Shown: piece by piece, positions 3,454 through 27,193 of the stretch | How positions within the stretch are numbered: position 1 is the stretch's first letter | Layout of the letters: every line of letters starts with the position of its first letter | NCBI GenBank assembly: GCA_963712115.1 | Contig: CAVQGX010000013.1 | Coordinates: forward strand, 1-27,691 | Length of the DNA: 27,691 bases | Direction: 5' to 3' | Origin: an uncultured delta proteobacterium | GTDB lineage: Bacteria > Desulfobacterota > Syntrophobacteria > BM002 | Made by a program: the position numbers and the translations under genes | The notes under the pieces: generated by a model | What the model was told of the DNA's origin: nothing | Seen by the model: only the letters and a program-made list of their open reading frames with translations | The model's database searches: none

Positions 3454-3455
3454 CT

Positions 3456-10960: not shown

Positions 10961-11117
10961 TCCCCTGTCACACAAGTTGCGCAAGGCGGTTTTAAATCTC
11001 TTTTAGCACCATCCAGGTACTATGAAGCGAACTATTCCAAAAGATATTCCTCAAATATAACCTCTCTTTAAGATTAAGAAATCAGTAATTCCCCGGGATT
11101 TTAGTCTGGCTTAGCAC

Positions 11118-11174
11118 TACATACCTCTTAATATAAACTTCCAGCGGAACTAATTCTGACACAATATATGGAAA
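11118..11174. repeat. Module-boundary repeat R1 (diverged)
   Basis: TACATACCTCTTAATATAAACTT...CTGACACAATATATGGAAA matches the family consensus. Confidence 0.7.
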
Positions 11175-11353
11175 TGTGGCGAGGCATTACTAGTACTGAA
11201 AATGAATCATCCCCTCTACCACCCTCAGCAATGTACCAAGGGTATACCTGACGGGGGGTCAATTTGAGTTGAATTGTTTACCTATAAAAGGAGCCACTGA
11301 CGAGCAAGCTGTATTGAATGGGATATATTTTCAACCTTGGCCCTGCCAATCCG

Positions 11354-11599
11354 CTAAGATTTAAAACGATCTATCTTTGGTCGCCGTGAAGGGGTGTTTA
11401 CAGGTTGTTGCTCAGGCCGGGATGGAGTTCGCAAAGAAAATGAAAATGTATTTTCCACAGAAACAAAATTTGAATTGCAGCAACTACAGAAATAGTGCCT
11501 ACTCAGTGGTATGATGCGCATCCATAAACTTCTTCTAATATGAGTTTCTGGTATGCTCTTGCATCGAGGACAGGCTTCGCCGATGGTAAATTTTGCCAT
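11354..11599 (-). CDS. Small Zn-ribbon protein; paralog of 16307-16516
   Basis: CPRC...IRRSLWMR...HYFCSCC. ATG at 11599 follows GAGGGG. Near-consensus sigma54 site TGGCACAACTCTTGTA at 11684-11699. Confidence 0.7.
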   Translation of the reverse strand: MAKFTIGEACPRCKSIPETHIRRSLWMRIIPLSRHYFCSCCNSNFVSVENTFSFSLRTPSRPEQQPVNTPSRRPKIDRFKS

Positions 11600-11824
11600 T
11601 TGGGTGCCCCTCGCCCTTTCTCGGAAGAATGAGGAGTGAAGTTCATTAGACCTGGTTACGTTATCCGCGCGACAAGAAAACCATACAAGAGTTGTGCCAA
11701 AGTCGATTGCAAGGACAGGTGTGATTAGACTAGGCACGGTTTACCAGAAAAGGCATGCCTTGGCTATGTCTGGTCCCTATTCAATCGATACAATATATTG
11801 ATAACTCTACAAGATTTCTGCGCA

Positions 11825-12394
11825 TCACTGATTGTCTGCTGGACTTATCAGAAGTCTCTGTGCCGGATGGATAATTGCTTCAGGTTCAAGCTTATTGAGA
11901 CGTCGCAATTCATCTACTGTTAAACCATAGCGACGACTTATGCTATAAAGTGTCTCACCAGCAACCACTTCGTGGTAAACAGCCTTTGTTTGTTTTTTTG
12001 CAGTTTGAGCAGGACTGCTTTTCGAGGGCGTTTCTAGCGTCCCAAAAGTATCTATTAACGTATTAAACTGTTTATTCTTCTCCTTGATCTGCTCTAGGTC
12101 TGCTTCGATCCTATCAAGTCTATAAAGTCTCTCTTCGAGCTGTTTGATTCTCTTTTCCAGTGATCTCATCTTACTTCCTGAGTCAACATTACTATAGCGT
12201 TGGAAAAGCAATGTAACCAGGACAAACAGTCCCACGATGAACGCCCCTATTAAAAGAGAAAATCCTCTCTTGCCCGGTGGTTTCCCTGTGAACCCATTTC
12301 CCTTATTCTTCCTCCGGGCTGAATATCCCTCTTCTCCAGAAAAATCTACCTCAAAGTCTGCTTCGAGAGTGTCTATTTTGTCCCTTTGATTCAT
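11825..12394 (-). CDS. Membrane-anchored coiled-coil LysM protein
   Basis: One hydrophobic segment, a coiled coil, and C-terminal YHEVVAGETLYSISRRYGLTVDELRRLN...IHPAQRL. Confidence 0.9.
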   Translation of the reverse strand: MNQRDKIDTLEADFEVDFSGEEGYSARRKNKGNGFTGKPPGKRGFSLLIGAFIVGLFVLVTLLFQRYSNVDSGSKMRSLEKRIKQLEERLYRLDRIEADLEQIKEKNKQFNTLIDTFGTLETPSKSSPAQTAKKQTKAVYHEVVAGETLYSISRRYGLTVDELRRLNKLEPEAIIHPAQRLLISPADNQ

Positions 12395-12441
12395 TGCTAC
12401 CCCGCCGCTCTCAATATAATTGGTAATAAAACTTTCACCAA

Positions 12442-12457
12442 CGCAATCCCGATGCCA
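12442..12457 (-). promoter_or_regulatory. sigma54 promoter for the LysM gene
   Basis: TGGCATCGGGATTGCG, GG-N10-GC. Confidence 0.7.
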
Positions 12458-12459
12458 AT

Positions 12460-12485
12460 AAAAAAGGTGGAGTCAGTGACTCCGC
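12460..12485 (-). terminator. Intrinsic terminator after the FHA gene
   Basis: Minus strand GCGGAGTCACTGACTCCACC followed by a T-run. Confidence 0.6.
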
Positions 12486-12559
12486 TGTGGTTATTTACTA
12501 GTGCATAGATGTGACAATGAAGGAAAGGGGAGAGTCTCTTCTTAACCCTGGTTTCGCTC

Positions 12560-12943
12560 TTAGAGTTTAACTAATGTTCGTTCAATTGTGCCGAAGACAT
12601 CAGATTTACCGTCATGTTCTTTGGTTAAAGCTGATGCCCTTTTCTTCAGAGAGAAGGTGAATACTCTGACGTTGAGTTCATTGCCAAACTTGACAATGTC
12701 CTCGTCAGCTAACTCAGCTGATTGCACTTTTATCCCGTTCACAAAGGTGCCGTTTCTGATTTCTTTATCTAGGACAATTAGTTTTTCTCCTATTTTTTGA
12801 ATTATAGCATGGTGCATAGAGACAGCTGCATCTTTGGGTACGATGTCATTGTCGGGATGCCGACCAATTGTTAGTCTATCCCCTTCTTTGAGAGTGTAAT
12901 CTTTTAGCACAAGTTCTTTAAACCGCAATTCTAGTACGACCAT
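12560..12943 (-). CDS. Stand-alone FHA domain protein
   Basis: LTIGRHPDND...VSMHHA...RNGTFVNG...DIVKFG. ATG at 12943 follows GAGGG. Confidence 0.85.
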   Translation of the reverse strand: MVVLELRFKELVLKDYTLKEGDRLTIGRHPDNDIVPKDAAVSMHHAIIQKIGEKLIVLDKEIRNGTFVNGIKVQSAELADEDIVKFGNELNVRVFTFSLKKRASALTKEHDGKSDVFGTIERTLVKL

Positions 12944-12984
12944 CTTTCCCTCAGTTGATCCCAATTAGCTCATGTATGAACTAT

Positions 12985-13000
12985 TGCATCGTTCATGCCA
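12985..13000 (-). promoter_or_regulatory. sigma54 promoter for the FHA gene
   Basis: TGGCATGAACGATGCA, GG-N10-GC. Confidence 0.65.
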
Positions 13001-13021
13001 GTTAGACTTACTGTAAAACTT

Positions 13022-13110
13022 CACATCCCTTAATCTAAATTTTGGCTGGTCTTAACTCTGACACAAGATGTTGGAAAGAAAAAAGCGGGGCGAACTAGGC
13101 GGTGTTCTTT
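13022..13110. repeat. Module-boundary repeat R2 with a decayed terminator hairpin
   Basis: CACATCCCTTAATCTAAAT...CTGACACAAGATGTTGGAAAG then AAAAGCGGGGCGAAC...GTGTTCTT. Confidence 0.85.
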
Positions 13111-13134
13111 GAAAAACTAATACTGCTGACTATA

Positions 13135-13524
13135 TTATTCCCAAGGAAATTCTTCTTTGTACCAGGGTGCAGGCAAATTCACCTCGATTGGCGTAACATC
13201 TGGATAATGACTTGCAAGTTTTGGTTTTACTGCTTCTGCAACAAATCTAACTACACCACTACGGAAATTGCTGCCAGTCTTCGCCCAGGTTACATAGAGC
13301 TGGCGTTGCTCTCCAATGGCGCTTATGGCTTCATTATTGCGTTCCTTGGCCAGGCAATCTCTAATGCAGCCTTCTCCAGCTAGCAGGGCTACTGGGTTCT
13401 GCTCGCCGTACCAGATGATGAAGACCCCTTCTATTTCTTCAAAATGCTCGTGGTCTAAGTCCAAATCTAAAAGAGCACACCATGTGCCTGCTTCACACTT
13501 GTTCCATTCAAGAAAGACGTTCAT
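13135..13524 (-). CDS. Hypothetical protein with weak GIY-YIG-like pattern
   Basis: 129-aa ORF with GGAG RBS. EGVFIIWY...LLAGEG.IRDCL echoes the GIY-YIG layout without its canonical residues. Confidence 0.65.
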   Translation of the reverse strand: MNVFLEWNKCEAGTWCALLDLDLDHEHFEEIEGVFIIWYGEQNPVALLAGEGCIRDCLAKERNNEAISAIGEQRQLYVTWAKTGSNFRSGVVRFVAEAVKPKLASHYPDVTPIEVNLPAPWYKEEFPWE

Positions 13525-13583
13525 TCTGCAGCGCTCCAGTGAGATGCGTAGAGTCTTCTGAAAAGATAGTCACTGTTTTATCT

Positions 13584-14003
13584 TCACTGTGGTTTTGGAC
13601 CGATGTCTTTAGGGTTTATGGTTAGGGTCTTAAGGGCCTTCAACTGTTTGCTATCTATCTCCTCGTCCGGCTCTAGATGCTGCAATATTTCCTTGGCTAT
13701 GACTCTTCTGTCATCGCTGGAGATATTCAGGAAACGAATCCCCATACCACGAGGATTAGTCTCGTCATCAGGTCCGTAGATATTAGACCAGACTACTTCA
13801 GCTTTGACCTTCAGTCTCTTTTCTGGTGCTTTGATGACCATATCAAATACTGTGTTTAATTTTAGAGGATTGGCACAACACACATAAGCCCCACTTGCGC
13901 TAATGTCTTTCGTTACTCCTTCTATTACTTTGCCATCGACTTTCGCTAGAACAGGCCATTTAAACTTGGCCCTATGATGTGTGCGTTTTTCCTTTTCAAC
14001 CAT
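13584..14003 (-). CDS. PilZ domain protein
   Basis: RTHHR (RxxxR) and DISASG (DxSxxG), then VVW...GMGIRF. Confidence 0.9.
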   Translation of the reverse strand: MVEKEKRTHHRAKFKWPVLAKVDGKVIEGVTKDISASGAYVCCANPLKLNTVFDMVIKAPEKRLKVKAEVVWSNIYGPDDETNPRGMGIRFLNISSDDRRVIAKEILQHLEPDEEIDSKQLKALKTLTINPKDIGPKPQ

Positions 14004-14049
14004 AGTGTTACTCCGTGTCTAAAATTGCCTTTATTGGTTTACTTAAATG

Positions 14050-14065
14050 TGCAGGAAATATGCCA
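14050..14065 (-). promoter_or_regulatory. sigma54 promoter for the PilZ gene
   Basis: TGGCATATTTCCTGCA, GG-N10-GC. Confidence 0.7.
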
Positions 14066-14110
14066 TAGGTTTTAGGTCTAATTTGAGAGAAGAAACCGCA
14101 GTAGAAAAGT

Positions 14111-14196
14111 AAAAAAGCCCCCATCGAACCGGGCACGGATGGCTGATGGGGGCACAACTATAGGAGAGTGAGATCAGTAGATCTCAACTCTATTTT
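14111..14196 (-). ncRNA. Candidate sigma54-dependent small RNA, about 85 nt
   Basis: No ORF between the promoter at 14207-14222 and the terminator GCCCCCATC...GATGGGGGC-T6 (14111-14153). Internal GAGATC/GATCTC hairpin and a CUCUCCUA segment. Confidence 0.55.
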
Positions 14197-14206
14197 TACT
14201 TGTATA

Positions 14207-14222
14207 GGCAGGAAGAGTGCCA
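14207..14222 (-). promoter_or_regulatory. sigma54 promoter for the candidate sRNA
   Basis: TGGCACTCTTCCTGCC, GG-N10-GC. Confidence 0.7.
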
Positions 14223-14568
14223 AAATGACAAAAAAGCGTTTAAATATATCATTTCAATGATTTGACTGCCACGCTTTAAATCTCGGCAGTTTTGTCAAAT
14301 CGCCAAATTTGGCGAAATGCCAAAAGCCAAGTTGGTCTTTTGGCCAATTGCAGGCAGAGTGGATAGCTTGAAAAGAAAAACCCTTATCGATGACTGGCCT
14401 CCTCAACTTCAGTGCTCGGCCGATGGGGCTAAAATGGATCAGTTGAGCGAGCGACAACCTCAATTCAACTGCTTCATAAACGCAAACCTAATGCCAATGA
14501 AATAGAGGATTCCGGTGTGGATGGTTCTGTGAATAGTAAACTCACCTCGATGCTGCGAAAGTAGATAT

Positions 14569-14621
14569 TACATCCCTTAATTTAAACTTTTGCTCCTAGT
14601 GAACCAAATACAGAATGTGGT
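14569..14621. repeat. Module-boundary repeat R3
   Basis: TACATCCCTTAATTTAAACTT. Left flank AAACTCACCTCGAT resembles the R6 flank AAACGCACTTCGAT; right half diverged. Confidence 0.75.
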
Positions 14622-14777
14622 AGATGCCGATGAGGAGGCAGAGTTTAGATTAAAGTATGAGATGACTACTTCCGGGGGACCAATACGGATTTTGAGTCTT
14701 TAGGCCGAGTTTTGATGTGCAGGCTTGTAACGACGATGTTCTTTACTCATGCTGAAAAGGAGGGTAATAGCAGCATT

Positions 14778-15347
14778 TCACCGGGCGGTAAGTAAGTAGA
14801 AGCAAACGCCCAAAAATGTGCCTATGCTGTTTAGGATCCAGTCGGATAAAGAAGAGGTCCTCCCTGGTATGAGATATTGGATCATCTCCAAGCTCAGGCT
14901 GATGCTAATTCCGACTAGCACTGTCACAGCAACGGCACTTATCTTTTGCAAACGTTTATTATCCAGAAGATAGGACACCAAAAGATAGCCAAATGGTAAG
15001 AATCCGAAAACATTTATAACAGAGTCTGTGTTTAAAGAAACAGCTCCCACAGTCAGGAAATGTTTCTTGGTAAATATTCCAAAGCTGTGGGGCACAAGTC
15101 CCATAAATAAAAGACCTAAGAAATAAACAGCCAGTAAGACCCCATCCATCTTTGTCTGATTTGGAAAAAGTAGCCTGCGCAGTCTGGAGAGCATGACGAT
15201 TCCACCAACTACAACAATTGAAAGCTGTATCAGGCCAATGCCAGGACTCCCAATATGAAGAGAGCCCGCAGCAACCCCAAGAAACATAATACTGAGTCCC
15301 ACGACTAATAGGATAGTATCTGAATGAGTTAGTATATTTTTTTTCAC
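14778..15347 (-). CDS. VanZ-family membrane protein
   Basis: Several hydrophobic segments; NVFGFLPFG...EMIQYLIPGRTSSLSDWILNSIG. Confidence 0.85.
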   Translation of the reverse strand: MKKNILTHSDTILLVVGLSIMFLGVAAGSLHIGSPGIGLIQLSIVVVGGIVMLSRLRRLLFPNQTKMDGVLLAVYFLGLLFMGLVPHSFGIFTKKHFLTVGAVSLNTDSVINVFGFLPFGYLLVSYLLDNKRLQKISAVAVTVLVGISISLSLEMIQYLIPGRTSSLSDWILNSIGTFLGVCFYLLTAR

Positions 15348-15504
15348 CGTCTGGTCTCGGCTCCTCAGCGCTAAAAAGTGCTCTCAATCATCAAAGGTTT
15401 TGTGTATATCTCGAAAGGTCAAAAAAGGAAAGCAAATTCTGATAGAAGGCGTTAGGGAAAGTCGAGTTATGTGAAATCTACCCAAACCCCATGATACTTT
15501 AAAT

Positions 15505-15587
15505 CACATCCTTTAATTCACATTCTGCTGAAATTTAATTTACCACAAGATATTGAGAGTCATAGAAAAGCGGAGCCGAAGCTCCGC
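15505..15587. repeat. Module-boundary repeat R4 with terminator hairpin
   Basis: CACATCCTTTAATTCACATT...CCACAAGATATTGAGAG...AAAAGCGGAGCCGAAGCTCCGC. Confidence 0.9.
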
Positions 15588-15635
15588 ATGGTCTCTGAAA
15601 AATAGTTAAAGCCTATTTCTAGACTTCCTATCTCC

Positions 15636-15845
15636 CTATATTGATGAGTAACAAATATCTAGTGCAGAAGTAGGTGGTTCAATTCTGTTCAGCTCATTTC
15701 TGTGAATGAATTGTCTGACAGCTTCCTCATTTATGCATTTTGCATAAATAGACAGGCAGTTCTCTTTGCCGCACTTAGAATATTCCTTGGCATTTATTTC
15801 TGTCAGTTCATGATAGCTACATTTCATGCAATATTGTAGGACCAT
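15636..15845 (-). CDS. Small Cys-rich hypothetical protein
   Basis: MVLQYCMKCSYH...CGKENC...C. GGAGG RBS, own sigma54 promoter and downstream terminator. Confidence 0.7.
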   Translation of the reverse strand: MVLQYCMKCSYHELTEINAKEYSKCGKENCLSIYAKCINEEAVRQFIHRNELNRIEPPTSALDICYSSI

Positions 15846-15945
15846 TTCTTCTCTCCCTCCACGATTGAGCTGCTGCCGCCTATTGAAATATCTATAAAGA
15901 GTCGAATAACCAGGTTCCAATAGACCAAAGATGATTTATTGGATA

Positions 15946-15961
15946 GGCAATCACCATGCCA
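15946..15961 (-). promoter_or_regulatory. sigma54 promoter
   Basis: TGGCATGGTGATTGCC, GG-N10-GC. Confidence 0.7.
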
Positions 15962-16154
15962 AAGAAATTATTTTTAAACTTTTGCTGTGTTGACGGTTAG
16001 TTATCTCAGAATTAGCCATGCAGAGCTCGTGAGAAAGTGGTATTTTGAGTAATAGTATTGGAAAAAAGATTCCATCTTCTCTGTGTCAAAAGAAAAACTC
16101 ACTATTTTTGGAGATTAAATGGCTGGCTCAAACGAGAAGGGGCAAAGTTTGTAT

Positions 16155-16236
16155 TACATCCCTTAATTCACACTCTCCTAGAATTTAATCTGGCACAAGA
16201 TATTGAGAGTACAAAAAAGCAGAGCCGAAGCTACGC
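16155..16236. repeat. Module-boundary repeat R5 with terminator hairpin
   Basis: TACATCCCTTAATTCACACT...TGGCACAAGATATTGAGAG...AAAAAAGCAGAGCCGAAGCTACGC. Left flank CAAAGTTTGTAT is identical to that of R7. Confidence 0.9.
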
Positions 16237-16306
16237 CGGTGGAGTTTAAAAAGTAACTTTAAAAGGTGAATGCTGTTTTGCACTCGTTAATGGGCGGACT
16301 AAAACC

Positions 16307-16516
16307 CTACCTTACTACTCTGAACATTTTGAATAATCCTAGACAAGCCGCAACCATTAAGGAATGGCGAGAGCAGTGGATAAAAAGGTTACTACAGTGT
16401 CTACAGAGATAGTGCTCACTTGTTGCTATCAGACGCATCCAGAGCTTTCTTCTTATCCGCCTTAATTCGACACACTGGCATATTGGACAGCTCTTGCTTT
16501 TGGCTAACGACACCAC
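16307..16516 (-). CDS. Small Zn-ribbon protein; paralog of 11354-11599
   Basis: CPIC...IRRKLWMR...HYLCRHC. Confidence 0.7.
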   Translation of the reverse strand: MVSLAKSKSCPICQCVELRRIRRKLWMRLIATSEHYLCRHCSNLFIHCSRHSLMVAACLGLFKMFRVVR

Positions 16517-16566
16517 CTTCTAATCATCCCAAAATGAAGCAAAGCCGAAGGCCCGCAAACTGAGCA

Positions 16567-16923
16567 TTAGTCAAGTACGCTCTGAACATACTCGTGAAGG
16601 ATAGCTAGAGAAGATTCTTGGAGATTCAGAAACTTGATTCCTCCGGTGAAGCAGGTTGTTTCTTGTCCCGGGATAATGCCGTGGTTTTGCAACCAAGCTA
16701 CTTCACCACTTACACATAGTACTGTCTTGAAGCGGTCTGGCAGCTGAAATGCCACCTCCAATTCTTCATTCACGGAGAGGGGGTAATTGGTCTTAATACT
16801 CATCCCTCCAGTGCTCAAATTGCAGACTATTATCCCCACTTCATTGAGGTCTTCTTGACAGCAGCGTGCAATTAGAGAAATAAGCACTCTAGGGGCGTTT
16901 CGTCTGTTCTCCTGCTCTCGCAT
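16567..16923 (-). CDS. PilZ domain protein
   Basis: RRNAPR and NLSTGG motifs, then GEVAW...GIKF. Confidence 0.85.
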   Translation of the reverse strand: MREQENRRNAPRVLISLIARCCQEDLNEVGIIVCNLSTGGMSIKTNYPLSVNEELEVAFQLPDRFKTVLCVSGEVAWLQNHGIIPGQETTCFTGGIKFLNLQESSLAILHEYVQSVLD

Positions 16924-17215
16924 AGCACTTATCCAGGTAAGCAGTTCACAGCAGAAGTCAAGCAACAAGCAAGTTGTAAGAATTAGGTGAGGATGTAAGG
17001 TAAAGAAATGCAGGCTCTTAACTTATAGAAGAATAGACTGCATTTCAACAAAAAAAAGCGTTAATACATTTATACGTGCTAAAGTACTTACGTAGAAATT
17101 CTGACTTTTGCAAATGGACAATCATAGAGAAGGCGAAGTTTACACGACAACGAAGTGGCCTGTGTCAAATGAGATGCGGTATTGAGGGCAACTAGGTAAA
17201 AAGTGAGGTGTTAGA

Positions 17216-17476
17216 ATGCCAAGGATAACGATTGGTGAACAGATGGTGAATGCTTTCGTTGAATTGGGTGAGGATATAGATGCAATAGTAGATGAAATTA
17301 ACCATTCTCTAGATGCAAAAGCCTTCCCGACCAATAACGCAATTAATGAGGCTCAAAGATGCATTACCGCTTTAGGCATAGTGAACGCAGGTATCATATT
17401 TTTGCTCGACTCATTGGAACGACTCGATAGAGAGTTTGAGGGCCACGAGGGTGCAAAACCGCTGTTTTTGGAATAG
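17216..17476 (+). CDS. Hypothetical helical protein
   Basis: 86-aa ORF with GAGGTG RBS; a strong hairpin follows immediately. Confidence 0.6.
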   Translation: MPRITIGEQMVNAFVELGEDIDAIVDEINHSLDAKAFPTNNAINEAQRCITALGIVNAGIIFLLDSLERLDREFEGHEGAKPLFLE

Positions 17477-17484
17477 GAGGGGTG

Positions 17485-17663
17485 AAAAAAGAACCCCCAC
17501 CGAAGCCAGGATATCCGATGGGGGCTAACAAAGGGATATTCGAGGTGGGATAAGCAGGCGAAAATTCCCACCCCATTGATATGATATATAACAGAAGAGA
17601 TAAGTTCATACAAGAAAAAAAGAAAAGCCCCCAATGACCAGTCCAGTTGCGGCCAATGGGGGC
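17485..17663 (-). terminator. Two tandem GCCCCCA...TGGGGGY terminator hairpins related to the one at 14117-14153
   Basis: Hairpins at about 17493-17525 and 17627-17663, each followed by a T-tract on the minus strand. Confidence 0.6.
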
Positions 17664-17696
17664 TAGGGGCAATACACTTGAAGCCAACAAAGACAT

Positions 17697-17791
17697 TATT
17701 ACCCCTTAATCTTATTCCACTGGTGAGGTTGTCCCTGTCAATCCGAAAAACCACCATTTTAGCCAACAAAAAAGCGGAGCCGAAGTTCCGC
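17697..17791. repeat. Degenerate module-boundary repeat plus GCGGAGC terminator hairpin
   Basis: TATTACCCCTTAATCTTATTCCACTGG followed about 75 bp later by AAAAAAGCGGAGCCGAAGTTCCGC, then AGTGTTCTT. Confidence 0.55.
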
Positions 17792-17892
17792 AGTGTTCTT
17801 GCAAGAATCATAACCTCAGAGAGTCATGTTTAACCTCCTGCCTGCAAAATGAAAAATCTGGAGCAGGCATTATCCTCACCGCTTGGGCAGCA

Positions 17893-18186
17893 TCAAAAGC
17901 CGAATCTAATCTGGATTCTTGTTCTGTTGGGCGAGAGGTAAAGCCCAAAATTAGAGTAGTGACTGTTACGGAAATCGCGTGGTTTATAGTCATATCCGTA
18001 ATTGTAATAACGCTGGCTCGGATAATTATTCTGGTATCCGTTAAACCTCTGGTTCCTGGGACCATTTTTGTAGTAGTTTCTGTGACCAGAGCGATACTGG
18101 CCATTCCCTGCCTCCGATGGAGACGCCCAAACCACCAGAGACATTGCCAAAAGAGCGGCTATTATAATCTTACCGATGTTTTTCAT
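17893..18186 (-). CDS. Small exported protein with an N/Y/R/G-rich low-complexity mature region
   Basis: AAGGAG RBS, signal peptide MKNIGKIIIAALLAMSLVVWASPSEA, C-terminal alternating pattern IQIRFGF. Confidence 0.75.
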   Translation of the reverse strand: MKNIGKIIIAALLAMSLVVWASPSEAGNGQYRSGHRNYYKNGPRNQRFNGYQNNYPSQRYYNYGYDYKPRDFRNSHYSNFGLYLSPNRTRIQIRFGF

Positions 18187-18360
18187 TTTTATTCTCCTTT
18201 CATACTTATTAATCGAATGGAGGGCGAAAAAGGTTACAGGTGCATCAAGAAATTTACTCAGCTGAGGCAGCACGGAGGGGTGAAACATCCGGGCTAGAAT
18301 TGATTGGTCTAGGTTGAAAATTGCTAAGAGACTCTAATTCGAATGGAGAGTTGGCAAAAG

Positions 18361-18383
18361 AAAAAGCGGAGCCAAAGCTCCGC
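18361..18383 (-). terminator. GCGGAGC-family terminator hairpin
   Basis: Plus strand AAAAAGCGGAGCCAAAGCTCCGC followed by GTGTTCTT, as at 13.1 and 17.8 kb. Confidence 0.7.
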
Positions 18384-18600
18384 AAGTGTTCTTTAGGAAG
18401 TGAATAGCCTCACCGTGGGCAGGCGTGTCCAATTACCCCACACTTATTCAACACTAGATGTGGTGGTGACTTCTAAATAGCAAAAGTGTGGATTAAAGTA
18501 TGTAATGTTCACTCACCACTGAATAATCATTCGAGCTGTCTTCCCGATCCGACTGCAGCGAGTGGTAGGCGACCGCTGCATTTGTCTACTGGATTCCTCG

Positions 18601-19032: not shown

Positions 19033-19077
19033 GGTGATGACACCCTCCGTTTATTTGGCCTCGACTGCGAATCACAT

Positions 19078-19135
19078 GCCTAACATATCTAATCAGCCAT
19101 GCGGGTTTTGTGTCGGTTGAATTAACCATATATCC
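19078..19135 (-). other. Degenerate attC-like site
   Basis: Minus strand AATTCAACCGAC...TGGCTGATT-AGATAT-GTTAGGC (paired L boxes plus a GTTRRRY core) just before the tsaA RBS. The R'' box has decayed. Confidence 0.6.
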
Positions 19136-19160
19136 ATTGTATCCTGATTGGCACAGTTGA

Positions 19161-19601: not shown

Positions 19602-20062
19602 AATTAGCTCTCCTTTTTGAATCTTTTGAAACGCCAACAAGTTATCATATGTTTACCATTATCTGAAATGATAGAATCCCCCATTTGGGGGATAAATGTT
19701 CTTTTTCTCTGTTATTGGGTGGCAAGGCGCCAAGATCAGTTGATGGCTCTTATCTATATGAGGATAAACGAAAGGACTCCAAAATAGTGGGTGTCGGAGT
19801 TGTGATCTAAGAGTTCACATATCTGGTACGTTTCTGAGGTATAGATTTTGGGGAGGCGAGGGAGCCTTTGGCGAGCTCGCCGAGGCTCCTCAACTCTATA
19901 ACTCGGGGCGTAACTGCATATGTTGTTCTCAGCCAGATTCTCAGTTAAGCATCTCGAAAAAAAAGTGAAGCTCCCTTGGTTAGTAGCCATCCGGTTTAGC
20001 CGGTGACATGATTTAGGGGCAGTCTGCAATGAAGCAGCTGCACAACTCAAAGGAGCTTCACC

Positions 20063-21511
20063 ATGAAAAAGCGAACCATTTATACGAATCAAAGTCAAGG
20101 GCTTCTTCGTCTCTTTGAGCAAGCAGCAAACAGTGCCAAAGTGATGTGCGTACCCATCGATTATGCGAAGAAGGACCATGTGGTCATGTTCTGTAACGGC
20201 TATGGTGATATTGTCAGAAAGCCGTTTTCGGTGAAGAACTCTCCGGAGGGTCTCGAGTATCTTGTCGATCAGGTAACCCGCTCTTGCCGTCACCGCCGAA
20301 TAAGAAAAGAGCATGTCTTCTTTGGCGGTGAAGATGCCAATTCATATGCAGAGAATTTTGCCAACACTCTGCGCTCTAAGGGATGGCTGGTGGCCCATGT
20401 AAATGCCCACGATGCAAAAAAGCAACGACAGAATCTTCAAGCCAGCACAGATCGTCTGGACTTGATGGGCATTGCCACCATGCTGCTCAACCGGCGAGCA
20501 AATTGCTCTCCTGCCCAAACTGGGATTTATCGTAACCTTCGGACTCTTGTGCGGCACAGAAAAAAGCTAGTTGTCATGAAAACTGAAGTTCGTAACCGAG
20601 TCCACGCTGTGGTCGATCGGCTTTTTCCAGGGTTTCTGAACGAGAAAAAAAGCGGGATCACCCCTTTTTCAAACAGTTCACTGTACTTGATGGAAAATAG
20701 CTTCAGTGCCCAGCAAATCCGCAGGCGCAAGCGCTCTACGCTTTGCAACATACTCAAACGTTACGGAACAGCTGATCCAGAAGCTACAGCCGCCAAAGTG
20801 CAAACCTATGCTGCTCAGGTGCTTACCATCCAGAACCAATACGCAGCTACCTTACAGATCTCCCTAGCCCATCACATCAAACTCTACCGCTGCTTGTTAG
20901 AGAATACTGAGCAACTTGAGAAAGAAATCGCCTTGCCGCTTGCTCAAAGCCAGGGTGCATTTCTAACCAGCATTAAAGGCATCGGCATTGTTTTGGCGGC
21001 CGGGATTACGGCTGAAATCGGCAGTCCCTTTGAACAAAAGCCGCTGAACAATCTGACTTCATACTCCGGTATTATCCCCAGGGTTAAACAATCTGGGGGA
21101 CCCAATGGAGCAGCCCATACGGGTCGAGTCAGCAAAAGGAGCAACCATCTTCTCAAAGACTCTGTGGTCCAGTCGGCTTTCCACATCGGCCGCTTTGGCC
21201 CAAAGGAGCTGGTAGTAGATTACAAGCGTCGTAAGGGAGCCGGACAGCACGCCGACTTCGGCATGGGCCGTCGATTCTTGCGCATGGCCATGTCTCTGAT
21301 GCGAACCTCACAAATCTATCTGCCACCTCATCTTCGAAATGATCAAGTCAGAGCACAAGAGCGGGCTGGCTACTACCTGGCTGTGTGGCCTCAGTTGCGC
21401 GAAAAATGGAATAAAGCCGATGCACTCAAAGTAGCCTTTGCAAAGCACAACCCCTTAGGTCAATGGCGACATATTGTACAGGAGATCTATGGGATAAAAC
21501 TCAAGCTATAA
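20063..21511 (+). CDS. IS110-family (DEDD) transposase / bridge recombinase, 482 aa
   Basis: PIDYAK (D), GGEDAN (E), STDRLD (D,D); C-terminal SIKGIG...AEIG...YSGIIPRVKQSG with the conserved Ser. AAGGAG RBS. Confidence 0.92.
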   Translation: MKKRTIYTNQSQGLLRLFEQAANSAKVMCVPIDYAKKDHVVMFCNGYGDIVRKPFSVKNSPEGLEYLVDQVTRSCRHRRIRKEHVFFGGEDANSYAENFANTLRSKGWLVAHVNAHDAKKQRQNLQASTDRLDLMGIATMLLNRRANCSPAQTGIYRNLRTLVRHRKKLVVMKTEVRNRVHAVVDRLFPGFLNEKKSGITPFSNSSLYLMENSFSAQQIRRRKRSTLCNILKRYGTADPEATAAKVQTYAAQVLTIQNQYAATLQISLAHHIKLYRCLLENTEQLEKEIALPLAQSQGAFLTSIKGIGIVLAAGITAEIGSPFEQKPLNNLTSYSGIIPRVKQSGGPNGAAHTGRVSKRSNHLLKDSVVQSAFHIGRFGPKELVVDYKRRKGAGQHADFGMGRRFLRMAMSLMRTSQIYLPPHLRNDQVRAQERAGYYLAVWPQLREKWNKADALKVAFAKHNPLGQWRHIVQEIYGIKLKL

Positions 21512-21554
21512 CCCCAGCCTGAAAACGCAGATGGCAGCAACAGCGAGAGAACTT

Positions 21555-21800
21555 TGTAGTTTCGGCGGACAGGATGGCTTTCAACATAACTGCCGCGGTG
21601 CTCGACAATGCGAGCGAGATCATCGACGGCTATGGCAAGAATGCCTCACCCTGTCCGTCCGAACCCTTATGGCTCCAAGGTACTCTGATCCTGGACAGAA
21701 CAGAAGATCTTGTCATACCAGTTTGCCAAAGTCGGACACCATGGGCGGGGGGTAACCACCGGCTACGCCGAACTGCAGATATCCATGACTGTGAGCTTTC
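21555..21800 (+). ncRNA. Candidate bridge/seek RNA in the 3' non-coding end (boundaries approximate)
   Basis: Stem TTCGGCGGACAGG/CCTGTCCGTCCGAA encloses GATGGCT (left target) and TGGCAAGA (reverse complement of right target). GGTACTCT and AGATA further on match the donor junction. Confidence 0.7.
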
Positions 21801-21900
21801 ACCTCGGTTTCACAAAAGCTCAAAAAAACCGGGCTAAACCGGCACAGGGGAAGTGTTGTCTCGAAAGAAGGGCAAAAAAAGAGTTGATCTTTTTCTGGTA

Positions 21901-22064
21901 CTCTTGCCAATATATGAACTTGGCCAGGATTGAAGGTATGAAAGGGAGATGTGACTTTACGTGGTGATGAGATACGGAAACGCACTTCGATCACTATCGA
22001 AGCTAATATTACATCCCTCTATCTAAACTCCACTGGAATTTCTTTTGGCGCTAGATCTTGAAAG
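21901..22064. repeat. Extended module-boundary repeat R6 (core 22010-22064)
   Basis: Collinear with 26893-27055 over about 165 bp; core TACATCCCTCTATCTAAACT...TTGGCGCTAGATCTTGAAAG. Confidence 0.85.
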
Positions 22065-22129
22065 TTACCAAGAGACCGCTGCGCTGAGAAAGCGCAGGCC
22101 GTGCTTAACCGAAAGGTGAGTTGCACAAT

Positions 22130-22638
22130 TTAGCGAAGCTGTCGCGCTGGCGGTTGCAACCCCGGATTTCGCGAAAATTTATAGGGACAATCTTCCAGTA
22201 CACTCCTGCGAAAGACGAGAACCTCTCCTGAAATCCCTAGAATCTTAACTTTTCTGATGCCGAGCTGGACGTTAAGGTGTGAATAGATGAATCCTGAAAC
22301 GACACCACAAACATTAATGATTTTCTCGTCTCCACCGGATAGGTTGGTTTTTATTGTTGCAGTGTCGCCTGTAACTTCAACATCGATGATGTTGTCGTAC
22401 CATGATGTCTTAAAACCTGTGACACCAAAGATGACTGCAAGGTACTGTCTTATCGCTCTGCGCGAGGCTGATTGGTCTTTGGTGTGGCCTCCGCAAGGAT
22501 AATCTTATGAGGGGAGTTAAAAACACGGGTCAAACTTGCTTTGGCAGCTGGCTTGGCTGGCGCAAGTGGAGTCAAAAAGAGTGCGGGTATTAAGACTAAG
22601 ACGATTGCGGAAATCAATCGGAGCGAGATGTATTCCAT
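22130..22638 (-). pseudogene. Exported hypothetical protein with a 1-nt deletion near 22455
   Basis: Signal-peptide ORF MEYISLRLISAIVLVL...PRAE continues after a -1 shift as AIRQYLAVIFGVTGFKTSWYDNIIDVEV... to TAA at 22130. Confidence 0.65.
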
Positions 22639-22662
22639 GTCATCACTCCTCATGAAAGCGAT

Positions 22663-22721
22663 GCATAACGTCCGAGATTAACGGCGCGGGTTACCACGGC
22701 GGTTGGAATGGCTTATTGGGC
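22663..22721 (-). other. attC-like site, 59 bp
   Basis: Starts 3 nt after the upstream stop: GCCCAAT-AAGCCATTCCAACCG...CCGTTAATCTCGGAC-GTTATGC, followed by the AGGAG RBS of the next gene. Confidence 0.65.
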
Positions 22722-22724
22722 AAA

Positions 22725-22988
22725 TTACGGATTTAAATCAAGAACTTCCTCTATTTTCTCAAACGGAAGGGATGCCGCTTCATTTACCTTCTTCACTGAC
22801 TCTGCATCTGGAGCCTCAAACAAACAAGTACACCGCGAATCTCCAGGATAAAAGTTACTTCGTATGTATTTAACTGGCGTTCCCTCCTTCGAGTACTTGT
22901 TGCTGGTATCTATCGCTGCTTTCTGAGCTTCTCCCAACTGTTCCATAGTTATACCCGGCAGGTTTCGTTGCACGGCATAGATAGGCAT
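22725..22988 (-). CDS. DUF4242-like small protein
   Basis: YAVQRNLPG...YIRS...CTCLFEAPDAESVKKVNEAASLPFEKI. AAGGAGGT RBS. Confidence 0.8.
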   Translation of the reverse strand: MPIYAVQRNLPGITMEQLGEAQKAAIDTSNKYSKEGTPVKYIRSNFYPGDSRCTCLFEAPDAESVKKVNEAASLPFEKIEEVLDLNP

Positions 22989-23230
22989 GACTTACCTCCT
23001 TCTTGGCCTAATAGTTGATTAAAAAGCCGCAACTTAGGGGACTACCAAAGAATATCTACTTAGCACCTTTGTCCCCCGCCATATATCATCGTAGGTCTTG
23101 GAATTCAAATCTTACCCAAATCTTAGACTACTCATGGGATTACTCTATACCCAAAATGCGCCACACGCTCTGTCGCGATGATGCTCTCTTTGAACTCAAA
23201 AGAGGGCGTCATAGGAACAGTGGTTATGAC

Positions 23231-24532
23231 TTATAAACCGTATTGTTCTTTTACGAGATGCGCAATACCTATCTGTTCCAGGCGGCTCATGGGGGTGAGC
23301 ATCGAGATGTGAACGATGCCAGGAAGACGACCGATTTCAACGCCTCCTGTGATGGTTACGCGGTTTCTCACCTCATCAATATCCATACCTGCTAACTTCG
23401 CCATTCGTTCGAGACCGTTCACTGTAGCCTGGTTCAAATCGGCACCCGAGCCCACCACCTGAATGGGAGCCACTTCAGTTTGGAGATTAAAGCCGTTCCT
23501 TTTGGCTAATGATCGGGCGATCTCTAACTCTTCGCTGGAAGGTAGTCTCGCCAGAGGCGGCAGGTCCTCCATTAGGGGTAATAAGATCGGTCCATCATTT
23601 GCCAGTTTTTTTATGACCTCGACCTCAACAGTGACCTCCGCAGAAACGTCCGTCGTATGACCAGCAATCTCTCCATCACCCTGCATCGCATGAACATCAC
23701 CTACGATTATGCCAGCTTGCTCAACCCTAACAGGCGCGATAACGATAGCACCTTCACCGACACTATCGATGTCCATGTGGGCATCACTTCTTTTCACCAG
23801 ATCTTCTTCGTTGATGGCATGGTCATGTGGGGCACCAATAAGAAACACCCCAAAGTCTCCGGCATTATGGGACGAGGGCATGGTAACCTCGGGCAAGGTT
23901 CCAAAATTCCCTATCATCGGCCGAATCTTCGATACAATGCCAGCAGGCATGTCTGCCAGAGCAAAAACCAATACGGAATGGCACGAAGATCCCACAGGTG
24001 CTCCTGAATAGTCTCCTGCATTTCTGGCTATTTCTTCTGCTACGTGTTTGGGAACTGTTACCCCCACTCTGCGATTATCATCAAAAACCATCGTATATCC
24101 ATTGGTTACATCAAATGCAGATATAGAAGTGTCGCAATCGGCACAGCGGATTGCATCCCTGCCGATTTCCTTTACAACTGTATTAGGATTGACCTTGCGA
24201 CACCCTGGACATTTTTTTGCAACAAATGGATCCCCAACAAAACTTCCTTCACGAGGAGTTTCAGTTCCAGACGATGAAGCTTTGGAAGTAATATTGATCT
24301 TTCTAATCTTTAGTGCCACACCGTCTCCAACTTCGGCGCCAGAAACAGCTACGGGACGGCTGACCGTGTGACCACTCTCAACCTCTGGCGTAATCATAGG
24401 ACCATAACAAGCCGGTTCCGTGCCCGTTACAATTAGACCACCATCTTTAACAGGGCCAAGCATGTCAGTCTCTGGACCTACTAGATCAACAAATTGACTT
24501 ACATTGACTATATCTTCACCCGATGATGTCAT
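23231..24532 (-). CDS. Acetamidase/formamidase (FmdA/AmdA) family protein
   Basis: PVAVSGAEVGD, HMDID, GDVHAMQGDGEIAGH motifs; CxxC...CxxC insertion; GGAGG RBS. Confidence 0.88.
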   Translation of the reverse strand: MTSSGEDIVNVSQFVDLVGPETDMLGPVKDGGLIVTGTEPACYGPMITPEVESGHTVSRPVAVSGAEVGDGVALKIRKINITSKASSSGTETPREGSFVGDPFVAKKCPGCRKVNPNTVVKEIGRDAIRCADCDTSISAFDVTNGYTMVFDDNRRVGVTVPKHVAEEIARNAGDYSGAPVGSSCHSVLVFALADMPAGIVSKIRPMIGNFGTLPEVTMPSSHNAGDFGVFLIGAPHDHAINEEDLVKRSDAHMDIDSVGEGAIVIAPVRVEQAGIIVGDVHAMQGDGEIAGHTTDVSAEVTVEVEVIKKLANDGPILLPLMEDLPPLARLPSSEELEIARSLAKRNGFNLQTEVAPIQVVGSGADLNQATVNGLERMAKLAGMDIDEVRNRVTITGGVEIGRLPGIVHISMLTPMSRLEQIGIAHLVKEQYGL

Positions 24533-25068
24533 TTGATCCCCTCCTCTCTGTCTTGACAGAGTCAAGATCTAACCTTTTCTAATTTCTCTGTGATCAGAAC
24601 TTTGCATAGTAATCGTCGATACACGGCGAACGGTTAGGTTTGCCTCTCCAAACCATCAATCATGTAAAGATGACTAAAGAAAACGATGAGTTGGTTTTCC
24701 TTACCTTCAGTTTCTGCGAAGCTCAGAAGAATTTTTTATGGCATTTATAGGAATCGTTAAAATCACGATAAAACCATGCTGCAAATCTTGTCAACCAGAA
24801 AAGCCGTGTGGCGGGAGTCAACCTGAGATCACATGACCAAGGTAAAGACTCGGTCAGGTATACATCTCGATCCGGACGCCCCTTTTTAGTAGTCTGCAAA
24901 GTCATACTGTGTGATGGGAATCTATGAACGACCCAGAGGTACCTTGGGGGCGGTCAGTTACGTGGAAGCTATGAGATGGATTAAGAATCTGTACTGATTC
25001 TCGGCATTTTTAAGATAAAGTTCTCCGCTTCGTCCGCACTGCTCACAGAAGAATAGCACATTGTACCT

Positions 25069-26208
25069 TTATAGAATTTCTTCAACCCTGTCCAAAGCTT
25101 GTTGAATATCAGCTGGCTGGTTGTAAAGGTGAGGAGAAAACCTGACAAAATCCTTTCTCGATGAAACCATAACTTGAGCCGCCTTAAGCTTTCGAGCCAC
25201 TTCCGCCGGATCTTTCCCCGGAAACCGTGCAGCCACAATGGAGGTCTGCTCTGCCTCATTGCGAGGCGAGATAATTTCCACGTTGCGCTCTTCCAAGCCT
25301 TCAATCAACAAATTAGCCAAATGTTTGTTGTACGAAAAAATGCGCGCCACACCGACATCCACCAAGTATTCTATTGAACGCGCCAAACCTATAGCACAGC
25401 CATAAGCCATGGTACTGTACTCAAAACGCTGTGCCGTTGTCGGGAACTCAACTCGGTCCGCCTGAAGATTCCACATTTCTCTATGACTTCGAAATCCTAC
25501 TAGTCCCGGGTCTAACTGATTCTGCAAAGCAGGCGCAAGATACATCACCGCTGCACCAAATGGTCCGCAAAGCCACTTGTAGCCGCCGGAGACTAAGGCA
25601 TCCACAGCACATGCTGGTGCATCTATTGGAACGGCACCGGCAGATTGAGTTGCATCTACCACCAGGAGAGCGTTGTGGTCATGCGCTACATCCGCCATCT
25701 CTTGCAGATCATAGCGCTGTCCACCACTGTATTCAACGTGCGAAACGCACACTACAGCAGTACGATTATCGACTAGTTGGATCACATCATCTGGGTTGGC
25801 ATAACTGTTTTGACCCTTAGCCAACCTAACCTCACAGTTCGTATGCCTTGCTACACGAAGCCAAGGATAAACTGTACTAGGAAATACGATATCCGTACTG
25901 ACCACATTGGTCTCAGACTCAGGGGCGACCGCCCAGGCCAATGAACTGATAAGTTCTGTTGCGCTCGAGCCTACTGCAATGTCCTCGGGCCGGGCGTTAA
26001 AAAGACGTGCGGCGGCACTATGTAAGTCACCGAATACGGTTGCTTCGGCAGTTTCATCAAAGTTTATGCTGCCATTTTCAGCAAGATCTTGTTGCCATTC
26101 GATGATGGCTTTTTCAGCGCCTTGGTACATTAAGGCCACATTGGCGGCATTCAAATATGTACATTTGTCGCTAGCAGGAAAATCTTTGGGATCGACAATG
26201 GAATCCAT
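25069..26208 (-). CDS. Class-V PLP-dependent aminotransferase (SufS/kynureninase-like)
   Basis: YLNAAN, VSHV, VDATQS, SGGYKWLCGP (PLP Lys), VRFSPHLYN. Confidence 0.92.
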   Translation of the reverse strand: MDSIVDPKDFPASDKCTYLNAANVALMYQGAEKAIIEWQQDLAENGSINFDETAEATVFGDLHSAAARLFNARPEDIAVGSSATELISSLAWAVAPESETNVVSTDIVFPSTVYPWLRVARHTNCEVRLAKGQNSYANPDDVIQLVDNRTAVVCVSHVEYSGGQRYDLQEMADVAHDHNALLVVDATQSAGAVPIDAPACAVDALVSGGYKWLCGPFGAAVMYLAPALQNQLDPGLVGFRSHREMWNLQADRVEFPTTAQRFEYSTMAYGCAIGLARSIEYLVDVGVARIFSYNKHLANLLIEGLEERNVEIISPRNEAEQTSIVAARFPGKDPAEVARKLKAAQVMVSSRKDFVRFSPHLYNQPADIQQALDRVEEIL

Positions 26209-26377
26209 CTACCTTTCCTTTATTATGTTGTTTAAAACTTCCATACTATCTCAAACTTCTCGCTCCACGATTGTGATCAATAGCCCCATTACTAAATCTC
26301 GTCAGCGGCATCACAACAGGGAGGTTGTTTGCCCTATCTGACCGTGTAAGGACATATCTAAGGCCGCAATTTCTTCA

Positions 26378-26695
26378 CTAAGATGAAGTTAGCTTGAGGC
26401 CCGCAATTCCTGTAATAATTAGGAAAATAAATAAAACTCTAGCTATTTCGCGAGACTCGCCAAAGAGTAAAATACCCATCAGTGCTGTGCCAACTGCTCC
26501 AATTCCAGTCCAAACGGCATATCCTGTACCTACTGGCAGGATTTTCAATGCTTGAGACAAGAAAAATACGCTTATAAACATGGCCACCAGCGTGATCCCA
26601 CTCGACAAGGGTTTAGTGAAACCTTCAGAATATTTCATAGCTATTGCCCAAACTACTTCGAATAAACCCGCAACAAAGAGATAAATCCACGCCAT
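26378..26695 (-). CDS. sugE: SMR transporter, SugE/Gdx subtype
   Basis: MAWIYLFVAGLFEVVWA, GTGYAVWTGIG, FGES; four hydrophobic segments; AAGGAG RBS. Confidence 0.9.
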   Translation of the reverse strand: MAWIYLFVAGLFEVVWAIAMKYSEGFTKPLSSGITLVAMFISVFFLSQALKILPVGTGYAVWTGIGAVGTALMGILLFGESREIARVLFIFLIITGIAGLKLTSS

Positions 26696-26892
26696 TGATT
26701 CTTTTCTCCTTTTCCCGAACACACTACTTGAGTTTAGACCTTAACTTAGTGCGAGATAGACATTAACTCTAGATGGCTAAAGACCTACGCAGCCTGTGGA
26801 TTGTTGTAGATAACCTCAGGCAACATGGTATCGGTTGGGAAGATAGTATCATCCAGTATGGTTGTTGATCAACCGTAGGGGAAAGTTCATGT

Positions 26893-27055
26893 CTCTTGCC
26901 AACATGTGAACTTGACCAGAACTAAAGATATGAGAAGGAGATGTGACTTGTCATGGTGATGAGATAAGTAAAGGTATTTCGGTCATTATCAAAGTTTGTA
27001 TTACATCCCTTAATTTACACTCAGCTTGAATTTAATTTGGCACAATATGTTGGAG
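26893..27055. repeat. Extended module-boundary repeat R7 (core 27002-27055), the copy nearest ssrA
   Basis: TACATCCCTTAATTTACACT...GAATTTAATTTGGCACAATATGTTGGAG. Confidence 0.88.
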
Positions 27056-27157: not shown

Positions 27158-27193
27158 TTTTACGCTTATCTTGCTGATAATATTGTATAAAGT

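Follow-up and report, generated by a model that had tools for sequence, protein, structure and literature searches.

One of many repeat-bounded gene cassette arrays in an uncultured deltaproteobacterial genus, with sites that resemble simple double-stranded recombination sites in form and behaviour

The window analysed here is a whole contig of 27,691 nucleotides (nt) (CAVQGX010000013.1, C13 below) from assembly GCA_963712115.1, the genome of an uncultured delta proteobacterium that we refer to as G000. This is a metagenome-assembled genome (MAG) of 4.9 Mb in 70 contigs, with 48.9% G+C, 94% complete and 6% contaminated. Between 11 and 27 kb nearly every gene of the window lies on the minus strand, and copies of a short repeat, T1, stand between the genes up to ssrA, the gene of the transfer-messenger RNA (tmRNA). 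The locus belongs to a cassette system that comprises many arrays and extends through the genus, and whose sites resemble simple double-stranded recombination sites in both appearance and behaviour. T1 may be regarded as one member type of a family of junction sites of ~60 bp and T2, which is always inverted relative to it, as the sister type; both are called T sites in the following.

An earlier note on this DNA, made from its letters alone, had reported seven co-oriented copies of the repeat and their consensus. All seven were recovered on the plus strand by a repeat finder and by an nhmmer profile for which they served as seed (42.7-61.8 bits, E 1e-10 to 1e-16; Table 1), and the consensus was correct; the ~140 bp given between the last copy and ssrA agree with a copy that ends at 27052-27057 and a tmRNA 3' end at 27194. 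The 19-nt core, with up to three mismatches, occurs five times in the window and 0 times in 100 shuffles, and the distance from core to core is 650-5855 nt. Two degenerate copies had been proposed as well: of these, 17697 (+) retains only a weak core that has suffered deletions, and 18285 finds no support. Inverted T2 copies that the list had overlooked lie at 14642-14660, at 18485-18503 and, in degenerate form, at 24974-24995.

Aligned over 99 copies, T1 consists of a weak left arm, a spacer that reads CATCCCT in 90 of the 99, the right arm TAATTCACACT, ~16 variable nt and a second conserved stretch, box 2, which reads GCACAAGATATTG. The left arm of 11 nt is degenerate (consensus gcAaAcTttagATTA, A.ACT....ATTA) and the right arm, also of 11 nt, is near-invariant. 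Inverted and complemented, the ideal left arm AGTGTGAATTA matches the right arm exactly, so that the core is an 11-7-11 site with an asymmetric spacer. T2 follows the same plan in an alignment of 58 copies, with CATACTT as spacer in 50 of them, TAATCCACACT as right arm and a second box of its own. Wherever a spacer stands between two good arms it is exclusively 7 nt long and of the CATCCCT or CATACTT kind, and the stretch directly behind the right arm is variable as judged by information content per position. The features that characterise sites of the dif type were found in this way, namely inverted arms of ~11 nt, a spacer in the range of 6-8 nt (7 nt here) and one arm better kept than the other. 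The differences between T1 and T2 number three and are fixed in 50-90 copies of each type and across species; since they are not compensated, they argue for selection on what would be a double-stranded protein-binding site and not on a stem.

Single T1 sites treated as single-stranded DNA (five minus-strand copies and one plus-strand copy) fold no better than shuffled sequences, with z from +0.03 to +1.3, and the internal inverted pair described previously therefore gives no stable hairpin from single copies. The window doublet at 14558..14665, in which T1 faces T2, folds as a long hairpin (z -3.5). A T2 partner is present for 24 of the 103 T1 copies of G000, and the genome holds 22 doublets in two size classes, 13 of ~91 nt and nine of 145-148 nt, the longer ones with a conserved internal hairpin. 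Only tmRNA reaches the gathering score in the Rfam search, and at E<=1 over positions 11000-19000 there is one chance match inside a PilZ gene. The repeat had been held to be neither attC nor clustered regularly interspaced short palindromic repeats (CRISPR), and this stands: single sites are unfolded, the boxes differ, the copies are widely spaced and no Rfam family matches.

Scanned with the seven-copy profile, the G000 contigs gave 181 matches at E<=10, of which 103 pass our cut-off of E<1e-3, on 35 of the 70 contigs. With up to two mismatches allowed, the genome contains 162 sites, 103 of T1 and 59 of T2, and 117 of these (72%) are gathered in 19 clusters (at least three sites, gaps of at most 4 kb) which together take up 124 kb (2.5% of the genome), with a median spacing of 1075 bp. 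One polarity is common to 113 of the 117 in-cluster sites. The largest array, at C3:106-128 kb, has 21 sites, and several contigs begin or end in the repeat. Scattering over the whole genome had been named in the earlier note as a sign against its own interpretation; by copy number the repeat is indeed scattered, but the copies are clustered and polar and do not occur at random in both orientations. Searched with up to two mismatches, the core is present in the rest of the genus (17 of 17 genomes, with 1-63 copies per genome) and in the single genome of a second genus. Three further genera of the same family and 19 genomes from other families gave 0 matches, and so did the reversed pattern, used as a control, in every genome. 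Viral contigs contained no exact core. The available portions of the literature searched on this repeat, PMC10926707 included, hold no description of it.

The array had further been thought to be anchored at the tmRNA end, with modules stacked at ssrA, and this part of the claim fell. Arrays occur at 19 clusters in G000, and the core lists of five relatives place no core near ssrA: over 45 kb separate ssrA from the nearest core in the closed genomes G002 and G013, and the ssrA contigs of G005, G014 and G016 are devoid of cores. The link to ssrA is thus specific to G000 and not a property of the element. In 17 of 17 relatives, the match with the window extends no further than the ssrA 3' end. 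No duplicated ssrA end of at least 20 nt was found in the window, and its integrase gene (16-1119) lies 26 kb off at the contig edge, so that the window does not present the features of an island inserted at a tRNA or tmRNA site.

When G000 is compared with itself, 52 of 855 ends of low-copy blocks fall within 10 nt of a core, a zone that represents 0.14% of the genome, and the blocks of high identity (92-100%, 0.4-9 kb) have their starts at -12 to +8, or their ends at 0 to +21, as counted from the core. Three segments of the window recur elsewhere in G000. The aminotransferase and SMR genes (25050-27048) recur at C36:7654-9663 with 93% identity, in a copy bounded by T1 cores on both sides; the segment 14649-15070 recurs at C60 with 99% identity, in a block that ends at the left edge of the spacer of the T2 site with core 14642-14660; and 17762-18511 corresponds to C3:123609-124358 with 96% identity, in a block that starts at the T2 core 18485-18503. 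Other species of the genus hold the modules in other places: three neighbouring window modules lie at 344, 704 and 1232 kb in G011, the FHA gene stands alone between two T1 sites in G007, and an array of G002 has flanks syntenic with C42 and C18 of G000 and a content that maps to at least ten other, scattered contigs.

We mapped the exchange points of 18 block pairs at the level of single bases. Exchange falls in the spacer interval, of ~8 nt, and all 18 pairs fit. Pairs with a common downstream side have different left arms, in three pairs up to position -1, and pairs with a common upstream side have an identical left arm and differ first at spacer position 4, at right-arm position 1 or further right. 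In the most informative of the latter, differences begin at right-arm position 1 in the comparison of C2 with C4, and at spacer position 4 in that of window 14642 with C60 8688, where T2 and T1 stand on one flank. That the left arm stays with one module while the right arm, the variable stretch and box 2 go with the other follows from an exchange in the spacer interval. In the window/C60 pair T2 and T1 are so unlike that their identity is too low for ordinary homologous recombination. Differences in gene content, in duplicated or strain-variant blocks as well as between species, map to the repeat with exchange points inside the core, as the earlier note had anticipated.

As had also been proposed, the repeats mark off gene modules with terminators of their own. 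The hairpin GCGGAGC-CGAA-GCTCCGC reported behind several copies is present, and it is terminator-like on the minus strand, that of the genes, where GCGGAGCUUCGGCUCCGC followed by a U-run is found at 15587-15570, 17791-17774 and 18383-18366; terminator-like sites number 25, against 14.3 +/- 3.8 in shuffles. Read in the sense of the genes, the order is therefore gene, terminator, repeat (as its reverse complement) and next gene. By crude open reading frame (ORF) calls, 83 of the 103 T1 copies are intergenic, both neighbouring ORFs are on the opposite strand for 55 of 103 and the 3'-side ORF is opposite for 79 of the 102 copies that have one called, with a median gap of 146 nt from stop codon to site and of 244 nt (range 5-1006) from site to next start. 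The cassette products are small signalling and envelope proteins (PilZ, FHA, LuxR-type regulators, cyclases, VanZ, LysM, OmpA/BON, PKD, M23), and transporters and enzymes also occur.

Cassettes probably carry their own promoters. Two promoter readings of the repeat itself were tried and rejected: for sigma-70 there are no conserved hexamers and the number of matches, 20 compared with 23.9 +/- 5.2 in shuffles, shows no enrichment, and for sigma-54, read by eye from the plus-strand TGGCAC-N5-ATTG, the distance between GG and GC deviates by one nucleotide from the consensus and transcription in this direction would enter genes from their 3' ends. A terminator hairpin of the family found in the 147-nt doublets, at 12455-12490, separates the LysM and FHA genes of the window and is not accompanied by a T site; as a T1 occupies the equivalent place in G007, two cassettes may have fused here after loss of the site.

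Table 1. T sites and accompanying features of the window, with related loci elsewhere in G000
Feature	Position	Strand	Remarks
T1, degenerate, 2-nt insertion in core	11108..11176	+	last array site, abuts 3' end of FHA/cNMP/PilZ gene; 42.7 bits
T1, core CATCCCT-TAATCTAAATT at 13024-13041	13016..13078	+	G011 homology stops inside core
T1-T2 doublet, ~91 nt core to core	14558..14665	+	T1 core 14570-14588 (+) facing T2 core 14642-14660 (-)
T1, hybrid spacer CATCCTT	15495..15560	+	followed by minus-strand terminator hairpin 15570-15587
T1, perfect core	16144..16210	+	followed by weaker hairpin copy 16219-16236
T1-like core, weak, with deletions	17698..17716	+	minus-strand terminator at 17774-17791
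T2 core 18485-18503 with canonical attC 5' (R''-L'') half ~18542-18568	18485..18568	-	attC half precedes core in gene sense
T1, degenerate	21999..22065	+	~100 nt of extra 5' flank in common with the 26991 copy
T2-like core, degenerate	24974..24995	-	between aminotransferase and formamidase modules
T1 closest to ssrA	26991..27057	+	profile and core match
IS110-family insertion sequence, transposase 20063-21511 (482 aa)	19817..21904	+	Pfam DEDD_Tnp_IS110, Transposase_20; ~105 nt from T1 core 22010
tmRNA gene (ssrA)	27194..27549	-	ARAGORN; Rfam RF00023, 207 bits; neighbour of the array, outside the element
Cassette-like genes, mostly minus strand	11354..26722	-	127-aa ORF, LysM, FHA, 129-aa ORF, PilZ, VanZ, 94-aa ORF, PilZ, 131-aa secreted-like ORF, TrmO_N, DUF3795, SCO4226-like, formamidase-like, class-V aminotransferase, SMR transporter
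FHA/cNMP-binding/PilZ protein, 400 aa	9758-10960		adjoins array
~1.29-kb IS110-family copies	C36:18380; C41:21546 (minus); C42:17060; C48:7450 (minus)		G000
attC-half/T2 loci	window 18542-18568; C27:118312; C31:156448; C42:183943; C54:12875; C54:16756; C60:7138		G000

We read the T sites as double-stranded site-specific recombination sites that delimit self-expressed gene cassettes, a reading drawn from sequence comparison for which we see the balance as about even. In gene sense, a cassette would be composed of a promoter region, one or more genes, often a terminator hairpin, and a site, and would in this resemble an integron cassette with its attC. A tyrosine-type recombinase, perhaps the housekeeping XerC/XerD pair or an unrecognised enzyme, would cut at the edges of the spacer; cassettes between co-oriented T1 sites would be excised as circles and re-inserted at any T1, and this excision and re-insertion would build the 19 polar arrays of G000, one of them next to ssrA by chance. 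More tentatively, the whole may represent a second cassette platform, independent of the integron, in an uncultured marine-sediment genus of deltaproteobacteria, with ~100-160 self-expressed cassettes per genome, 29-bp 11-7-11 sites, two heterospecific spacers, a Xer or unrecognised recombinase and occasional hybrids of an attC half and T2 with the coexisting integron; this fuller picture we consider possible, at somewhat less than an even chance. The cassette-accretion system distinct from integrons that the earlier note had deduced is retained here in that the modules are bounded by repeats that are not attC, and abandoned as regards the stacking at ssrA.

Several observations weigh against recombination at the T sites. 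No recombinase tracks the sites among the IntI, other integrase, Y1 and IS110 proteins examined, and the array of G002 has no recombinase adjacent to it. With a model that recovers the G000 gene, IntI was not found at E<=1e-30 in five of five site-rich relatives (5-63 cores). Candidates tried as the driver fared no better: the array-linked integrase of the C39 type is found in three of the 17 genus genomes and also in site-free genomes; the IS110 transposase of the C54 type is found in five of the 17, and the subgroup that targets T1 is only ~30% identical to this profiled type; and a link to Y1 transposases, including the REP-associated tyrosine transposases (RAYT), was discarded as the four Y1_Tnp genes have no core within 3 kb, save for one unrelated array site 2.2 kb away (C48). 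Since most partner pairs do not differ in spacer or right arm, homologous or microhomology-mediated exchange could account for most events. Because of the contamination of the MAG, some of the "99% duplicates" may be co-binned strain variants, an origin that would still place the variation at the sites but would change the nature of the events. We saw neither a circular cassette nor a hybrid junction in the contigs of four public metagenome runs (four studies, sediment-type samples) aligned to 10900-27691, and contigs cannot show circles. The doublets, with T1 facing T2 at 91 or ~147 nt, are conserved end to end in the manner of miniature inverted-repeat transposable elements (MITEs). Finally, the orientation of the sites relative to genes rests on crude ORF calls, and some adjacent genes have no site in between (window 22.6-26.9 kb; G012:C43).

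As for the enzyme, tyrosine recombinases give twelve matches in G000, which include IntI and an XerC/XerD-like pair (C62 and C30, 42% identical). Several integrases lie within 10 kb of arrays and are mutually unrelated, except for a C39/C11 pair with 39% identity. The integrase of the window, which the earlier note had put forward for an excision test, loses its standing as a candidate, being one of several unrelated integrases near arrays and belonging to a phage- or satellite-like block 10 kb from the array; the ORF at 9758-10960 is not an integrase but the FHA/cNMP-binding/PilZ protein of Table 1. No match to the 28-nt E. coli-type dif motif was found in G000 at up to seven mismatches. With nothing specific tracking the sites, a housekeeping Xer recombinase or an unrecognised protein would remain as the candidate enzyme.

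Insertion sequences (IS) of the IS110 family occur both beside and inside T1. The one in the window (19817-21904) has a 100% identical copy at C3:95498-97585 and is inserted in a conserved region of 172 nt 5' of T1, which is intact at 26893-27064. A distinct element of ~1.29 kb is found at a single point of the T1 right arm, AGTG^TGAATTA, in four of four copies (both junctions in three), and this identical insertion point means that it uses the T1 core as a specific target. IS110-type elements are known to target attC, REP and dif-type sites.

The alternative that survives best, although we judge it unlikely, is that the T1-T2 doublet is a non-autonomous element, similar to a MITE or to a REPIN (a doublet of repetitive extragenic palindromic, or REP, sequences), that the solo copies are its decayed halves and that modules are shuffled incidentally when copies recombine homologously, for instance after DNA uptake. 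The 22 doublets, in two size classes and kept over their whole length including the internal hairpin, would be expected of such an element, as would the strong folding of the doublet, an inverted repeat that reaches ~12 nt past the core into the flanks, the high copy number restricted to one genus, and the failure to find a dedicated recombinase. The depth of the metagenome contigs also peaks on the repeat, bins holding the cores 16156 and 18485 having 10 to 60 times the depth of most other bins. Loose contig ends gather at the repeat borders (16143-16153, 16201-16203, 18471-18472 and 18506-18515), and the short sides of contig joints (19-30 nt) lie on repeat sequence; we read these joints as other doublet copies rather than as excision products. 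Against a MITE-like origin, the doublet flanks shown have no target-site duplication and no autonomous partner with these ends was found, solo T1 is far commoner than the doublet, and a polarity of 97% with a spacing of one site per gene is hard to reach by random insertion. The three fixed differences between T1 and T2 are unlike neutral decay, and the sites at the window/C60 junction share too little identity for exchange of the RecA type. The flanks of two "solitary" copies (C37, C14) are themselves mosaic, and a comparison with empty sites is uninformative there because these flanks are modular.

It is improbable, in our opinion, that the T sites have a cis-regulatory or architectural role, as operators for a genus-specific protein or as insulators acting with the terminators, and that the breakpoints merely mark gene boundaries. 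The palindromic, operator-like arms, the fixed orientation to genes, the position right after terminator-like hairpins and ~50-250 nt upstream of the next gene, and a sigma-70-like match ~50 nt downstream (gene sense) of copy 27003 would all accord with such a role, but the distance to the next start is broad, sigma-70-like matches are not enriched, and neither the joining of unrelated modules exactly in the spacer nor the concentration of 72% of the sites in 2.5% of the genome would be explained.

G000 does possess a true integron. Its integrase gene, intI, is located at C27:2356-3300 (TIGR02249, 487 bits against a cut-off of 265), and the nearest relatives of the protein are in MAGs named "Deltaproteobacteria bacterium". 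The array upstream of intI (C27:1-3300, locus L001), which runs off the contig start, has small cassettes in reverse orientation and no fewer than three attC sites of the canonical kind, ~115 bp long and with CTAAC...GTTAG boxes; no T site was found in the IntI-proximal 2.3 kb. The boxes RYYYAAC ... GTTRRRY define an attC. The arms of T sites read ..ATTA / TAAT.. without AAC/GTT boxes and, as regards the attC hairpin, only the T1-T2 doublet folds. Seven loci (Table 1) carry a fusion to which a canonical attC contributes its 5' half, ~35 nt upstream of a T2 core; the attC 3' half is missing, and the fusion stands behind a different gene each time. That T sites are unusual or degenerate attC used by this IntI, with the arrays as clusters of attC sites lacking an integron integrase (CALINs), is very improbable, for although the IntI is genuine, the layout and gene content are cassette-like and the seven fusions exist, the IntI-linked array uses canonical attC and is free of T sites near the integrase, T sites are without the boxes, single T1 sites are unfolded, and IntI was not found in the five relatives, this last being a weak point because CALINs can exist without IntI.

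Some other features of the window and the genus were noted. At 22640-22700 (-), right behind the SCO4226-like gene, there is a possible short, degenerate attC-like remnant that ends in CGGACGTTATGC. The phage- or satellite-like block at 16-7758 comprises a tyrosine integrase, a GpA-type large terminase, an AAA_25 protein and a small HTH protein; the integrase (16-1119) is at the contig edge and the attachment site of the block is outside the contig. An ISL3-family element with perfect 21-bp terminal inverted repeats and a transposase split over two or three ORFs occupies 8168-9514. A second dispersed repeat of ~65-85 nt, unrelated to T sites (L076:3329-3411, or G000:C37:101328-101410), has many copies of 88-97% identity in every genome of the genus and is not a tRNA according to ARAGORN, and two more repeat families of ~200 nt (L067:3540-3740 and L067:10847-11033, in G011) have many copies in G000 with 72-84% identity.

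To our knowledge, exchangeable gene modules delimited by short sites have been described for two systems, the integrons and the dif modules of Acinetobacter. Integrons work with a folded single-stranded attC and require IntI, and the way in which dif modules move is still debated. If our reading of the T sites is true, the T system, chromosomal and genus-wide and with ~160 simple sites of double-stranded DNA per genome, would imply that cassette platforms arose more than once; its polarity, two site types and mapped exchange points would make it an extensive natural data set from which the rules of site choice could be derived, and the T sites are small enough for direct reporter tests. The assembly and annotation of these sediment MAGs are also affected, as contigs start or end in the repeat and variable regions fragment there.

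The more distant comparisons concern CRISPR, genomic islands and dispersed repeats. CRISPR repeats are 25-50 nt apart, by contrast with the hundreds to thousands of nt between T sites given above. Integrative islands anchored at tRNA or tmRNA genes, including those with tandem accretion in the manner of tycheposons, resemble the window in that its array lies directly downstream of ssrA and relatives diverge exactly at the ssrA 3' end; by contrast, the T repeat is unrelated to the ssrA 3' end, there are arrays at 18 other clusters and no integrase is found at the ssrA-proximal end. REP and REPIN sequences and MITEs such as the Correia elements of Neisseria share with T sites the many intergenic copies, doublet hairpins in two size classes, restriction to one genus, targeting by IS110 elements and rearrangement breakpoints, whereas T sites have no link to RAYT or Y1 proteins, show strong polarity with about one site per gene, exist mostly as single, unfolded copies and are conserved as two discrete site types. 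An IS110-family element that targets REP elements is described in PMC11208160.

Integrons come closer. Like integron arrays, T arrays are polar, with mostly one small gene per site and the site at the 3' end of the gene; the cassettes recur in other orders and in other genomes, part of the site passes to the neighbouring cassette upon exchange, arrays are also found in genomes without integrase, and IS110-family elements target the site. They differ in that the T site is a simple double-stranded site, without the R''/R' AAC/GTT boxes, whereas attC is a folded single-stranded hairpin, that T cassettes have their own terminators and that the heads of T arrays are without attI or an intI platform.

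The plasmid dif (pdif) sites of Acinetobacter have one arm that is well conserved and another that is poorly so. As with T sites, modules of accessory genes are bounded by short double-stranded sites in which two inverted 11-nt arms surround a short spacer, the modules are shuffled between contexts and have no dedicated recombinase gene beside them, the flanking sites alternate in orientation or are inverted, and IS elements target the sites. By contrast, the spacer of T sites has 7 nt and two fixed types, against 6 nt in pdif, the arms are unlike the E. coli-type dif motif and an extra conserved box 2 is present; the T arrays are chromosomal, with up to 21 sites in one array and ~160 sites per genome, in an uncultured deltaproteobacterial genus. 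PMC6449649, PMC13141974, PMC12907356 and PMC7399989 describe pdif modules of Acinetobacter plasmids as Xer-dependent, and PMC10132070 describes insertion sequences that specifically target pdif sites. Xer-dependent dif modules and integron cassettes are thus the closest known analogues of the T arrays, which by the tests made here would belong to neither.

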